A DNA stretch of 21,542 bases from a virus (IMGVR_UViG_2563366943_000015), one strand, 5' to 3'. Positions 6,922-19,378 are shown, counted from the first letter of the stretch. The notes: generated by a model from the letters alone, not told the origin. Program-made: numbers and translations.

Positions 6922-6944
6922 AAAAAACCCGCCGAAGCGGGTTT
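6922..6944 (-). terminator. Intrinsic terminator of the hok transcript
   Basis: Minus strand: aaacccgc-ttcg-gcgggttt followed by a T run; 70-90 nt downstream of the hok stop. Confidence 0.6.
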
Positions 6945-6982
6945 AGTGCGGGTGCGTTGAGGATGCCTGACACATGAGAGGT

Positions 6983-7004
6983 GGCGAGGGATTTCTCCCT
7001 CGCC
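6983..7004 (-). promoter_or_regulatory. Perfect 9-bp stem-loop immediately 3' of hok (hok mRNA 3'-end structure)
   Basis: ggcgaggga-tttc-tccctcgcc, 8 nt downstream of the hok stop codon. Confidence 0.5.
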
Positions 7005-7011
7005 TGGTCTC

Positions 7012-7167
7012 TTACTCCTCAGGTTCGTAAGCTGTGAAGACAGCGACCTCCGTTTGGCCGGTTCGGATTCGTACCTCGCAGAGGTCTTTCCTCGTTACCA
7101 GTGCCGTCACTATGACGGTTAAACAGATGACGATCAGGGCGATTAGCATCGCCTTTTGCTGCTTCAT
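7012..7167 (-). CDS. hok: Hok-family type I toxin (HokD/RelF-like), 51 aa
   Basis: MKQQKAMLIALIVICLTVIVTALVTRKDLCEVRIRTGQTEVAVFTAYEPEE matches Hok/Gef family from memory; RBS AAGGAG 9 nt upstream; an in-frame upstream ATG at 7224 gives a 19-codon mok-like extension. Confidence 0.85.
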   Translation of the reverse strand: MKQQKAMLIALIVICLTVIVTALVTRKDLCEVRIRTGQTEVAVFTAYEPEE

Positions 7168-7727
7168 AGCCTGCTTCTCCTTGCCTTTCGGCACGTAAGA
7201 GGCTAACCTACGTGTGTAGAGCATAGATATGGCCTCAGATTAATGTTAAGCGTCTTGCCGGACGCGTAATGTTAACTGGGGCTTTTCTCTATCTGCCTTT
7301 TGGTGTTCATGCCTGAGACAGATAGCCTCAAGCACCCGCAGTTATTCTACTTAACTAAGATTTCCCCGCAAACCGTTTTTGTCCGGCACAGTAAATATCC
7401 AACTAAACCAATGGCGTTCGCTGTATTTACCGCCAGTATTCAATGCACATGACCGCCATGAACACCCCTAAAAAAAGGGCATTTATATGTCCAAACATTA
7501 ATATCAAAACATCAATTTTTTCCATATACCTTGCTGTGAAGATGATGGGCATACATGATGCGAACAACCAGAACGCAACAAACAAAAACTGCAATGCGTT
7601 TTTCATTATTCCCCCCTACAATCAATGTGCAATAACATTTAAACACACCTCAATTTGGCCGGACATATAAATATCTAAACCAGAAAAAATCACTTACATA
7701 GCGTTACAAACTCTTTAGTCTAAATAT

Positions 7728-8243
7728 TCATCGTAAAACATCCTCCACGCTTATCAGTCCATTTCGTTTCAGGTAATCCATCGCCTTCTCCGGTAATTTG
7801 CAGTCCGACTGAGCTTTTTTCAGTTGACTGACCAGTCGTTTAACCCACATTGTTAATTCGCTAACCTGATTGCCGGATGCTGGTGGATTGTCGGCTTTAC
7901 CCAGAATGGCAGCGCAGCAGGCCTCTCTGAGCACCCAGTCAACAGCATCCTTCCATGCTCCTGTTTCGACTGGCGGATTCTCACGCTTTACCTGTTCATA
8001 AAAGCGCACGGCTTTAACCAGTCCTTCTGATGTCACCGGGACTGGCGGGCCGATGAATAAGGCCTGAATTTCATAGTTCGGCCTGTCGTTACAATCCTCT
8101 TTTGTCGGTACATATTTCCAGTCACCAGCCCACGGCTTCCCCTGAAAGTCTGTAACGTCTTTTTTCACGTAGCGATATCGCCATGCAACTGGTTTTGCCT
8201 GCCCTGCCGTTTCATGCCCTTCCTGATAATTAATCTCGCTCAT
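7728..8243 (-). CDS. Hypothetical phage protein, 171 aa
   Basis: ATG at 8243 overlaps the upstream stop (GAATGA); last gene of the coupled nin-like chain. Confidence 0.55.
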   Translation of the reverse strand: MSEINYQEGHETAGQAKPVAWRYRYVKKDVTDFQGKPWAGDWKYVPTKEDCNDRPNYEIQALFIGPPVPVTSEGLVKAVRFYEQVKRENPPVETGAWKDAVDWVLREACCAAILGKADNPPASGNQVSELTMWVKRLVSQLKKAQSDCKLPEKAMDYLKRNGLISVEDVLR

Positions 8244-8416
8244 TCATCGCCCCACTCATCACAATATGCTTCGACCGGAGTTTTTCCTGCTTCATAATCA
8301 TCACGCCATGCTTCAGCATCAGCAGCACTGCCACCACGTAACTCTGCATAGTCCATTAACAGTTCATGCCATGCTTCAAAACTGACGTTGTATTTAGTTG
8401 AACCAAAATCAGCCAT
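8240..8416 (-). CDS. Small acidic protein, 58 aa (MADFGSTKYNVSFEAWHELLMDYAELRGGSAADAEAWRDDYEAGKTPVEAYCDEWGDE)
   Basis: Not in the ORF track (under 60 aa); translated by hand from the minus strand. ATG at 8416, stop overlaps the next ATG. About 15 Asp/Glu against 5 basic residues. Confidence 0.45.
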   Translation of the reverse strand: MADFGSTKYNVSFEAWHELLMDYAELRGGSAADAEAWRDDYEAGKTPVEAYCDEWGDE

Positions 8417-8591
8417 TTTGCTCTTCCTCTTCGTCTTTTATTTCGTGATATGAGTAATTGCAGTAGTTAAAGAAAATATCTTTAGCTTCATCCTGTATTT
8501 CATCTGGTGTTGCATCATCATCCACTTCGAATTCATCCTCGAAATCTCCACCGGCTATTCCCGTTTCAATAATTATTTTGAATTTTCGCAT
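8409..8591 (-). CDS. Small very acidic protein, 60 aa
   Basis: About 20 of 60 residues are Asp/Glu (FEDEFEVDDDATPDEIQDE...KDEEEEQNG). Confidence 0.5.
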   Translation of the reverse strand: MRKFKIIIETGIAGGDFEDEFEVDDDATPDEIQDEAKDIFFNYCNYSYHEIKDEEEEQNG

Positions 8592-8684
8592 TTCACTACC
8601 GCCCTTTCGGACGGCCTCCTGATGTTCTGAGGGTGCAGAAATCCCTCCGGTTAAGGATTAAATTTTTAACAGAGCTAAATTTAA

Positions 8685-9041
8685 TTATTCAGTTCTGGAT
8701 TTTGTCGCCCTGCGTATCCGCGCTTTCGCGTTACGCTCAATCTGAATTAGCTTTTCTATATTTTTTCGCCTTTCCCGCTCCTCCTGGCGCAAGTGCCTTA
8801 CATCATCTGCCAGTCTGGTTTCTCTTTTCGCCACAGAGAGCATCCAGTCAAATGGCTCCACAACTGCACCGCAGATTTTACAGCGGACCTGACGCTCTTT
8901 TTCGTCAACCCGGACAGAGGCGTGATGACAATATGGTCTTTCCGATGGCTCATAAAGAAAATTAACCTGATTACGAGGGTCATCCTCTTTTACCGGAAAT
9001 AAAACGATATTGCTTAACTCATCCTCTGGTTTTATTTCCAT
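8685..9041 (-). CDS. Hypothetical protein, 118 aa, with a Cys/His cluster and a basic C-terminus
   Basis: CHH...C...CxxC then an Arg/Lys-rich tail; RBS AAGGAGAGG before the ATG at 9041. Confidence 0.5.
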   Translation of the reverse strand: MEIKPEDELSNIVLFPVKEDDPRNQVNFLYEPSERPYCHHASVRVDEKERQVRCKICGAVVEPFDWMLSVAKRETRLADDVRHLRQEERERRKNIEKLIQIERNAKARIRRATKSRTE

Positions 9042-9480
9042 GCTCCTCTCCTTTGATGCGAATGCCAGAGACGCGTAATGCGTGTTCTAGGTCAATCAGG
9101 TAAAGCCAACTGCCATTTTCTTTAGGTATCATGACATGTCGCTCATCTGCATTTATCGGGTGTCCATATCGAAGGTCGTAGCGAGTCGGTAATTGAACTT
9201 CCCGCGCTTCCAGTTCAGCAATACGCTTGCTCCCATCAGAGATAACGCCTTCGTAATACTCACGCTGCTCTTTGAGTTGTGATTTTGCTTCTTCCAGTCC
9301 ATCCAGCAAATCAGCGATAATATCCGCTTCCCGATGACGGATGTGACGCTTAAACGCAGCAAGAGCCGCATCACAATCCCGTTCAGCATTTGGGCTGTCC
9401 GGGATAGCCTGATACCACGCCAGCGTCGACTGATAGTTTTGTGCTGCCTCACGAAGCGCCTCATAGTTAACCTCTCTCAT
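9019..9480 (-). CDS. Phage early protein, 153 aa (possibly Ead/Ea22-like)
   Basis: ATG overlaps the upstream stop (ATGA at 9480..9477); family call tentative. Confidence 0.5.
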   Translation of the reverse strand: MREVNYEALREAAQNYQSTLAWYQAIPDSPNAERDCDAALAAFKRHIRHREADIIADLLDGLEEAKSQLKEQREYYEGVISDGSKRIAELEAREVQLPTRYDLRYGHPINADERHVMIPKENGSWLYLIDLEHALRVSGIRIKGEEHGNKTRG

Positions 9481-9773
9481 TGAGCCACCTCCTGATAAAT
9501 CACTGCATGCCCCAGTTTCTCCGCCAGTGCCAGCTCTGCCTTAGCGCCCGCTGACCGCTGCCAGCCATTCAGCATGTAAATCGCATCCACACAACGAATC
9601 ATTGCCATGCAAATATCCATGTAGTGCGGCTGTGTCAGCCCGTCCGGAAGTACTGCCGGGTTTAAGACGGTATGCCCTTCCCGTTTCAGTTCCTCTTCCG
9701 CCTTGTGAAACGCCTCACGGTTGAAATTTTCATATCCCGTCATTGGACCGGCAATATAAACTCTGACCCTCAC
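9477..9773 (-). CDS. DUF4406 / nucleoside 2-deoxyribosyltransferase-like protein, about 98 aa
   Basis: YIAGPMTG motif; GTG start at 9773..9771 with AGGAGG 7 nt upstream, overlapping the upstream TGA (GTGA). Confidence 0.5.
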   Translation of the reverse strand: MRVRVYIAGPMTGYENFNREAFHKAEEELKREGHTVLNPAVLPDGLTQPHYMDICMAMIRCVDAIYMLNGWQRSAGAKAELALAEKLGHAVIYQEVAQ

Positions 9774-10162
9774 TCCATCACCTCCTGAAAGTTTCCCCGA
9801 TAGAACGCCAGCACACGCTGCATAACTTCGCTCTGGCGGCACTCACGACAAATTATGTTCTGCCGTCTGTTGTAACGACGTATTTCTCCGTCAGGTAACT
9901 TTCGAATCAGTGTCGGGTCAGCAGCCTTCTCCGGTGTCTTACGCCATACGCGATACGCCTGCTCTGATGGAAATACCCCGCAACCAGAGAGCCAGACATC
10001 ACCACTGGCCGCAAGCGCACCAGATAAACGACGAATAGCGGTCTTACTGACACCCGTTTTATCTGCCAGTTGTCGAAAAGTTTCTCGTCCGCTCAGGCGC
10101 ACGAATTCCACAATGCGCGCCTTCACTTCTTCCCGCTCTTCTGGTGTAAATACTTTTGCCAT
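9770..10162 (-). CDS. Putative HTH DNA-binding protein, 130 aa
   Basis: ATG at 10162 with RBS GGAGG; helix-turn-helix-like segment FRQLADKTGVSKTAIRRL; CxxC near the C-terminus. Confidence 0.5.
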   Translation of the reverse strand: MAKVFTPEEREEVKARIVEFVRLSGRETFRQLADKTGVSKTAIRRLSGALAASGDVWLSGCGVFPSEQAYRVWRKTPEKAADPTLIRKLPDGEIRRYNRRQNIICRECRQSEVMQRVLAFYRGNFQEVME

Positions 10163-18990: not shown

Positions 18991-19197
18991 ATGACAAAAA
19001 TTATGAGATATGACGATGTTAAACCATGTCCGTTTTGTGGTTGTCCATCTGTTACGGTGAAAGCAATTTCAGGATATTACCGGGCAAAATGCAACGGATG
19101 CGAATCCCGAACTGGCTATGGTGGAAGTGAAAAAGAAGCACTCGAAAGATGGAATAAACGAACTACTGGAAATAATAATGGAGGTGTTCATGTATAA
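18991..19197 (+). CDS. ralR: Restriction-alleviation protein RalR/Lar, 68 aa
   Basis: MTKIMRYDDVKPCPFCGCPSVTVKAISGYYRAKCNGCESRTGYGGSEKEALERWNKR matches Rac RalR from memory. Confidence 0.75.
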   Translation: MTKIMRYDDVKPCPFCGCPSVTVKAISGYYRAKCNGCESRTGYGGSEKEALERWNKRTTGNNNGGVHV

Positions 19198-19378
19198 AAT
19201 TACTGCCACTATTGAAAAGGAAGGTGGCACTCCTACTAACTGGACAAGATATTCAAAATCTAAATTAACGAAATCAGAATGCGAAAAAATGCTCTCAGAA
19301 AAAAAAGAAGCAGGCGTTTCCAGAGAGCAGAAAGTAAAGCTGATAAATTTTAATTGCGAGAAACTTCTGTCCTCGTGA
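19190..19378 (+). CDS. ydaC: YdaC-like small protein, 62 aa
   Basis: MYKITATIEKEGG...; RBS GGAGG upstream; overlaps the ralR 3' end. Confidence 0.55.
   Translation: MYKITATIEKEGGTPTNWTRYSKSKLTKSECEKMLSEKKEAGVSREQKVKLINFNCEKLLSS

Follow-up and report, generated by a model that had tools for sequence, protein, structure and literature searches.

Two adjacent acidic small genes of a Rac-like lambdoid prophage, orf60 and orf58: conserved families and candidate inhibitors of nucleic-acid-binding proteins

Two small adjacent genes, here called orf60 and orf58, encode strongly acidic proteins in a viral DNA stretch of 21,542 nucleotides (nt) (IMGVR_UViG_2563366943_000015; this whole stretch is referred to below as the window). 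They raise the question of whether such proteins act as DNA mimics against host restriction or other nucleic-acid-binding defence proteins, as was proposed in an initial annotation made from the sequence. Over the part that holds the two genes, the window matches a Rac-like lambdoid prophage of Escherichia coli CEA601S at 100% identity, and the locus DNA was found in 2145 of 5426 complete E. coli genomes. Strong acidity turned out to be a trait of two separate gene families, and the reading that we prefer, tentatively and short of calling it probable, is that orf60 and orf58 would act stoichiometrically, as acidic decoys for, or inhibitors of, basic proteins of the host or of a competitor that bind nucleic acids.

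Coordinates, composition and coding evidence

Both open reading frames (ORFs) were located where they had first been reported, adjacent to each other within 8240-8591, and both are read from the minus strand:

8409-8591, minus strand: orf60, 60 amino acids (aa), MRKFKIIIETGIAGGDFEDEFEVDDDATPDEIQDEAKDIFFNYCNYSYHEIKDEEEEQNG, identical to RefSeq WP_001224665.1 (DUF7167 family protein)
8240-8416, minus strand: orf58, 58 aa, MADFGSTKYNVSFEAWHELLMDYAELRGGSAADAEAWRDDYEAGKTPVEAYCDEWGDE, identical to RefSeq WP_000753058.1 (hypothetical protein)
8409-8416, minus strand: orf60/orf58 overlap of 8 nt, ATGGCTGA, with the orf60 stop TGA at 8409-8411 and the orf58 ATG at 8414-8416
8425-8429, minus strand: GAGGA Shine-Dalgarno sequence of orf58, 8 nt 5' of its ATG and within Glu codons of the orf60 tail (GAA GAG GAA GAG)

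Asp and Glu account for 20 of the 60 residues of orf60 (33%) and 15 of the 58 residues of orf58 (26%), in line with the one quarter to one third estimated at the outset. The calculated net charges were -15 and -11 and the isoelectric points (pI) 4.05 and 4.06 for orf60 and orf58, respectively, which corresponds to -0.25 and -0.19 charges per residue. The two proteins rank as the most acidic pair among the 26 annotated proteins of the homologous RefSeq prophage stretch. The GC content of orf60 is unusually low (36%, compared with 45-54% for its neighbours). Translational coupling, which had also been proposed, could be read directly from the sequence as the 8-nt stop/start overlap. The expectation that the 58-aa ORF would escape annotation proved wrong, as RefSeq/PGAP and GenBank phage records call both genes.

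Across about 160 prophage loci, the ratio of nonsynonymous to synonymous substitution rates (dN/dS) was 0.090 for orf60 (35 distinct DNA alleles) and 0.066 for orf58 (26 distinct DNA alleles), values similar to those of the flanking genes. Polymorphism in both genes was in excess at third codon positions, and the other two same-strand frames contained stops in every allele of either gene. The allele data thus indicate that orf60 and orf58 are real genes under purifying selection. The alternative that they are spurious ORFs or decaying, functionless remnants draws on the frameshifted or stop-containing orf60 alleles present in some genomes and on pieces of the 3' part of orf58 left at the mosaic junctions of other phages; it is opposed by the dN/dS values of 0.07-0.09 together with the closed alternative frames, by the existence in lytic phages and plasmids of homologs that are full-length and 37-55% identical, and by the folded models that AlphaFold2 gives. 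We consider it extremely improbable and, as judged from the alignments, effectively refuted by the conservation data. The frameshifted orf60 variants of some E. coli genomes (P0048, P0050 and P0068) enter an overlapping 37-aa frame (8438-8551, minus strand; ...TTAITHITK).

The start of orf60 is preceded by a structured leader:

8598-8620, minus strand: orf60 leader, a strong AGGAGG (8615-8620) followed by a 7-base-pair hairpin with a GAAA loop (8598-8615)

The hairpin ends 6 nt before the ATG (8592-8597), and its last base, U8598, opens the UAGUGAA that precedes the start codon. The hairpin was retained in the RNAfold centroid, and in other prophages the stem varies (CCGCCC/GGGCGG, CCGTCC/GGGCGG or CCACCC/GGGTGG) and the loop stays GNRA (GAAA or GGCA). 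The hairpin showed no significant covariation (94.6% paired, a single double change, and a score equalled by 180 of 500 shuffles). The leader may be a split ribosome-binding site, perhaps of the kind found at T4 genes 38 and 25. Because TAA stands directly before the ATG in 62 loci, the start of orf60 is fixed.

Family distribution and gene neighbourhoods

The orf60 protein matched Pfam DUF7167 (PF23768) at 54.5 bits (cutoff 24.4; residues 2-53 on profile positions 1-60 of 60) and phrog_1997, a group of unknown function, over 57 of 57 positions (E = 2.7e-30). Its relatives, all standalone proteins of 52-64 aa, occur in prophages of Escherichia, Klebsiella, Citrobacter and Yersinia, in lytic phages (Klebsiella Guernseyvirinae, Enterococcus Herelleviridae and Phapecoctavirus-like phages) and in one Enterococcus thailandicus genome, and they are scarce on plasmids (15 records). 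The net charge was between -10 and -18 in 34 of 34 tabulated members (~57 aa; mean of -0.23 per residue), which extend from E. coli prophages through Enterococcus-type phage sequences. Positions E9, E22, D24-26, E31, E35, D38 and E50 were acidic in at least 80% of 27 aligned members, and beside these columns stand the motifs IET and CNYG.HE.

For orf58, no match was obtained in Pfam or NCBIfam, and phrog_519, likewise of unknown function, was matched at profile positions 76-137 of 143 only (E = 2e-22). An exhaustive hidden Markov model search of 1.84 billion cluster representatives returned 70 relatives at E <=1e-3, nearly all of them standalone proteins of 50-65 aa, with the consensus F.EW...L...A...GGSaaD..AWr.DY.aGkTP..AW.DEWG. 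and with W16, W37, Y41, G44, TP and W55 conserved. Family members carry a mean charge of -0.16 per residue (range, -0.05 to -0.30), and positions 14-15, 33, 39-40, 42, 49 and 53-54 are acidic in 60-80% of them. The alignments of the two families thus indicate that acidity is conserved and position-specific in both, and no quirk of the copy in the window.

Homologs of orf58 at 44-57% identity were found in Vi01-like Ackermannviridae (of Salmonella, Klebsiella and Serratia), in the Autographiviridae phage phiKDA1 and in a Lastavirus. The family is also present on 561 plasmids, 516 of which are predicted to be conjugative; approximately 420 plasmids carry a copy at 80-90% identity, the examples listed being 58-68 kb in size. 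On large plasmids of Klebsiella and Providencia, more distant copies (~50% identity) form part of long runs of small hypothetical genes that share one strand. One plasmid of the ~60-kb class was examined, the IncI2-typed NZ_CP031550.1, in which the orf58 homolog (WP_000753050.1, 86% identity) is translationally coupled to a DUF1187 (RcbA-type) gene, lies downstream of a CaiF/GrlA-type regulator gene, adjoins repA and heads an SPFH/NfeD/type IV secretion gene array (8348-10157 of the extracted stretch).

Two further associations of orf58 were considered and rejected. A fusion with DUF1187 had been suggested by the 127-aa protein P0198 and by the restriction of the orf58 match to phrog_519 positions 76-137; P0198, however, is a frameshift read-through of two adjacent IncI2 genes in which the DUF1187 match ends at profile position 39 of 61, and DUF1187 belongs to a separate PHROG (phrog_5753). 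A fusion with DUF551 or a coupling to an adenine methyltransferase was dismissed as only 3' remnants of 63-75 nt (the last 21-25 codons) were present at these mosaic junctions. In phiSTEC1575-Stx2k the remnant precedes a DUF551 gene and falls in a gap without annotation; in the P1-like phage JL22 it precedes an adenine methyltransferase gene and is covered by a 50-aa annotation in a different frame.

The adjacency of orf60 and orf58 was seen at 156 of 160 loci, all in near-identical E. coli prophages. DUF7167 genes occur without orf58 in Citrobacter, Klebsiella and Yersinia prophages and in lytic phages, and orf58 occurs without DUF7167 in Enterobacter prophages, Vi01-like phages and plasmids. 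The gene that follows DUF7167 is an unrelated basic 59-aa gene in Citrobacter and a Cys-rich 70-aa gene in Klebsiella; in Enterobacter, the orf58 homolog lies directly 3' of Ea22 and no DUF7167 gene is present. An obligate two-gene system of orf60 and orf58 was therefore rejected, as the adjacency is lost across divergent relatives. Only an Ead/Ea22-like gene, lying immediately upstream, recurs as a neighbour in the prophages of Citrobacter, Klebsiella and Enterobacter. This gene has a conserved 3' end (...GGCATYGG..RAAGGRGA..TGA), directly after which comes the ATG of one cassette or another: Citrobacter and Klebsiella have DUF7167 there, Enterobacter has the orf58 homolog, and the window has a 118-aa zinc-ribbon gene (~9042-9070). 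From its sequence this 3' end looks like a recombination slot, and because one upstream neighbour recurs, orf60 and orf58 resemble interchangeable occupants of one exchange slot, a pattern typical of lambdoid mosaics. They are best seen as two independent accessory cassettes whose adjacency in this operon is incidental. A genome-contig scan with narrow search patterns yielded 2 loci only. A 3-kb contig assigned to a Collinsella sp. metagenome-assembled genome (JAIHTM010000290.1) carries the block orf118-orf60-orf58-orf171 at 87-97% aa identity to the E. coli prophage and is most likely a binning contaminant.

The neighbours of DUF7167 in lytic phages bear on a different explanation, that orf60 and orf58 would assist or regulate the DNA metabolism of the element itself (replication, recombination exonuclease or annealing protein) instead of inhibiting host proteins, for example as acidic chaperones or modulators of a basic DNA-binding protein of the phage. 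In Klebsiella Guernseyvirinae, the DUF7167 gene overlaps the start of a 454-aa exonuclease gene that is followed by a gene for a Gp2.5-like single-stranded-DNA-binding protein, and in Enterococcus Herelleviridae it lies directly 3' of a 180-aa exonuclease gene, an adjacency that could be a coincidence or a functional hint. Consistent with this explanation, both genes come after the replication module in the window, the IncI2 homolog of orf58 is coupled to its DUF1187 gene beside repA, and the same prophage contains a DUF1187 gene of its own (19118-19378). These neighbours are not conserved across contexts, however: the two exonucleases are unequal in size (454 aa versus 180 aa), the Vi01, phiKDA1 and Lastavirus contexts differ again, and the Ea22-like upstream gene is the only one to recur in the prophages of the three genera named above. 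A role in the element's own DNA metabolism is in our judgement unlikely.

Predicted folds and resemblance to known small proteins

AlphaFold2 was run on the family alignments. The orf60 model (pLDDT 78, pTM 0.58) has three strands (residues 2-10, 15-23 and 45-51) and one helix (29-40), and its acidic C terminus forms a helix or tail; with moderate confidence, the predicted fold is beta-beta-alpha-beta, a three-stranded sheet packed on one helix. The orf58 model (pLDDT 81, pTM 0.63) has helices at residues 13-27, 34-42 and 47-55, and is predicted with similarly moderate confidence to form a three-helix bundle with a conserved Trp/Tyr core and conserved acidic stripes. In the helices, acidic residues recur at i, i+4 as a pattern at the level of the sequence.

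Both proteins share with the class of DNA mimics a small size, a pI below 5 and an Asp plus Glu content of at least ~20%, and the trait is conserved in both families. Like T7 Ocr (gp0.3) and ArdA, they are small, very acidic, encoded in an early operon of a mobile element and devoid of an enzymatic domain, and like ArdA the orf58 family is carried by phages and conjugative plasmids alike. They also agree with AcrIF2, AcrIIA4, Ugi and phi29 p56 in size (within 50-90 aa) and pI (~4), and orf60 has the mixed alpha/beta architecture of DNA-mimic anti-CRISPRs and uracil-DNA glycosylase inhibitors; no sequence or fold match to any of these four proteins was retrieved. Ocr, ArdA, Arn, Ugi, p56, Gam, AcrIF2 and AcrIIA4 were absent from the top 60 fold matches of either protein, and a Foldseek search of predicted viral structures gave only uncharacterised proteins at E above 0.04. 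Searching the PDB by sequence and by profile gave nothing relevant at E up to 10, comparisons with Pfam, NCBIfam, PADLOC and PDB revealed neither an enzymatic nor a DNA-binding domain, and no PADLOC defence model was matched. The suspected likeness to DNA mimics thus holds for the charge pattern, at the sequence level only, and does not extend to structure, there being no match to the Ocr or ArdA fold. Since known DNA mimics share no common fold, the lack of a fold match is compatible with mimicry.

A second comparison was made with the small proteins of the lambda exo-xis/Ea22 region (Orf61, Orf63, Orf60a and Ea8.5), which resemble orf60 and orf58 in length (~60 aa) and in being of unknown function; both sets of genes adjoin an Ead/Ea22-like gene in lambdoid early operons as exchangeable cassettes. 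Homology between them was rejected (<=3 bits in hmmsearch with both family profiles), and the lambda proteins are far less acidic, with a net charge of at most -6 in 55 aa. The possibility that orf58 is a ribbon-helix-helix protein (CopG/Arc) was likewise rejected: the lone weak match, pRN1 ORF56 (E = 0.23), covers helix 1 only, the N-terminal consensus T.eN.sF lacks the alternating hydrophobic residues expected of this fold, and a net charge of -11 is incompatible with DNA binding.

The same comparisons bear on whether orf60 and orf58 might be host-takeover factors directed at core machinery, such as a Gp2-like RNA polymerase inhibitor or an antagonist of H-NS or HU, and not at immunity. The spread of DUF7167 across phages of Enterobacteria and Enterococcus, which implies a widely conserved target, speaks for this idea, as do DMP12 and T4 Arn, which are DNA-mimic proteins that bind HU or H-NS. 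A relationship of orf60 to T7 Gp2, however, failed the profile test, with hhalign probabilities of 0.4% (A3) and 0.2% (A5). Against T7 Gp2 and the antitoxin T4 Dmd together there was no profile similarity (0.2-0.4%), the scores lying at the noise level of a common fold, and the conserved IET and CNYG.HE residues of DUF7167 differ from those of either protein. Two arginines are essential in T7 Gp2. Strand 3 of DUF7167 has no conserved arginine, CNYG.HE being conserved there instead, and the net charge of orf60 is -15 as opposed to -5 for Gp2. We regard host takeover of this kind as quite unlikely.

Operon setting and proposed function

The order of genes on the minus strand is cro-like helix-turn-helix gene, ydaT, ydaU-like, ydaV, DUF1627, DUF977, DUF4406, Ead/Ea22-like, 118-aa zinc-ribbon, orf60, orf58, 171-aa gene, hok/sok, DUF1367, DUF1364, DUF1133/Q-like and lysis genes, and a plus-strand operon contains kilR, recE, recT, the DUF1187 gene, xis and int. 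The surrounding features are as follows:

8685-9041, minus strand: 118-aa gene, phrog_1621, directly upstream of orf60
8240-8243, minus strand: ATGA overlap of the orf58 stop with the start of the 171-aa gene downstream
7728-8243, minus strand: 171-aa gene, phrog_660, function unknown
7012-7337, minus strand: complete hok/sok-type type I toxin-antitoxin locus, with sok at 7162-7337 (Rfam, 117 bits)
7012-7224, minus strand: mok/hok ORF, named hokD in RefSeq
19118-19378, in the operon opposite to orf60 and orf58: DUF1187 gene

No promoter- or terminator-like site was found between the upstream genes and orf60/orf58. Given the synteny and the lack of such an intervening site, an early nin-like position is a fair inference. 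The early nin-like chain proposed at first fits by strand and by synteny with the genes from cro-like to Ea22 on one side and from hokD to DUF1133/Q-like on the other, and both genes can be placed with fair confidence in a delayed-early (pR-type) operon. The 118-aa protein gave a weak TFIIB-type zinc-ribbon match (CxxC...CxxC; E = 1.6e-4, under the Pfam cutoff) and has a very basic, Arg-rich C-terminal helix; it is possibly a nucleic-acid binder adjoining the two acidic proteins. Just downstream of hok/sok, an isrK-like match at 6922-7003 remained sub-threshold (31 bits versus a gathering score of 50).

According to the decoy or inhibitor reading that we prefer, orf60 and orf58 would be made from the delayed-early operon after infection or induction, and each acidic protein would attach to a host or competitor protein at a positively charged surface used for binding nucleic acid. 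The bound surface would be blocked stoichiometrically, as with DNA mimics and other small acidic phage inhibitors. Candidate targets are a restriction or defence enzyme, a nucleoid protein, RNA polymerase and a recombination nuclease. Both inhibition by charge mimicry and the choice of target are inferred, and DNA mimicry or an anti-defence role is a plausible hypothesis. Occurrence of both families across unrelated mobile elements is as expected for host-directed accessory genes, and a spread that takes in temperate phages, lytic phages and plasmids is easier to reconcile with action on the host than with a part in the life cycle. For DUF7167, the range from Enterobacteria to Enterococcus phages suggests that the target is widely conserved.

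Several observations weigh against this reading. Acidity alone is also typical of proteins that are not mimics, and in two lytic phage groups that are unrelated to each other DUF7167 sits beside an exonuclease gene, which could mean that it serves the DNA metabolism of the phage itself. The IncI2 homolog of orf58 lies in no recognised leading region and the Vi01 homolog just 3' of the major capsid gene; being near a capsid gene or a repA-transfer array, these contexts are unlike the first-expressed position of anti-defence genes. Internal stops are present in 3 of the 35 orf60 alleles, and because frameshifted and stop-bearing alleles exist, orf60 appears to be dispensable and occasionally lost in lysogens.

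A search of full texts for accessions, family names and motifs yielded no functional description of the orf60 or orf58 family. In the full texts searched, the term phrog_519 occurs only in two descriptions of phage genomes, and the orf60 and orf58 motifs were absent from the supplements of two phage accessory-gene screens, an anti-CRISPR discovery study and a plasmid leading-region study. The initial annotation stands in that the genes are real, coupled and delayed-early, and acidity is family-wide. Its claim that the 58-aa ORF would be missed does not stand, and neither a pair conserved outside E. coli nor support from the literature was found.

As they stand, orf60 and orf58 belong to catalogued families of unknown function; should the inhibitor reading prove correct, these families would be new ones within a kind that is already known. 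Both are well conserved and are good, cheap candidates for anti-defence and interaction screens, and would not surprise phage biologists. A more specific proposal, which taken as a whole is doubtful, would make the orf58 family a new, fold-distinct DNA-mimic or anti-defence protein that aids establishment against type I restriction-modification, BREX or similar systems, and DUF7167 a second, phage-restricted inhibitor of a target conserved from Enterobacteria to Enterococcus. Lambdoid prophages (in ~40% of complete E. coli genomes), Vi01-like lytic phages and conjugative plasmids in their hundreds, among them the IncI2 backbone, would then have the orf58 family in common. Should one or the other protein inhibit a defence or DNA-binding protein of the host, a new and abundant fold family would be added to the anti-defence repertoire. 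Because the orf58 family is carried by 516 conjugative plasmids, including 60-kb IncI2-type resistance plasmids, and by lytic phages of the therapeutic type (Vi01-like and Klebsiella phages), such a function would have a bearing on plasmid spread and on host range in phage therapy.
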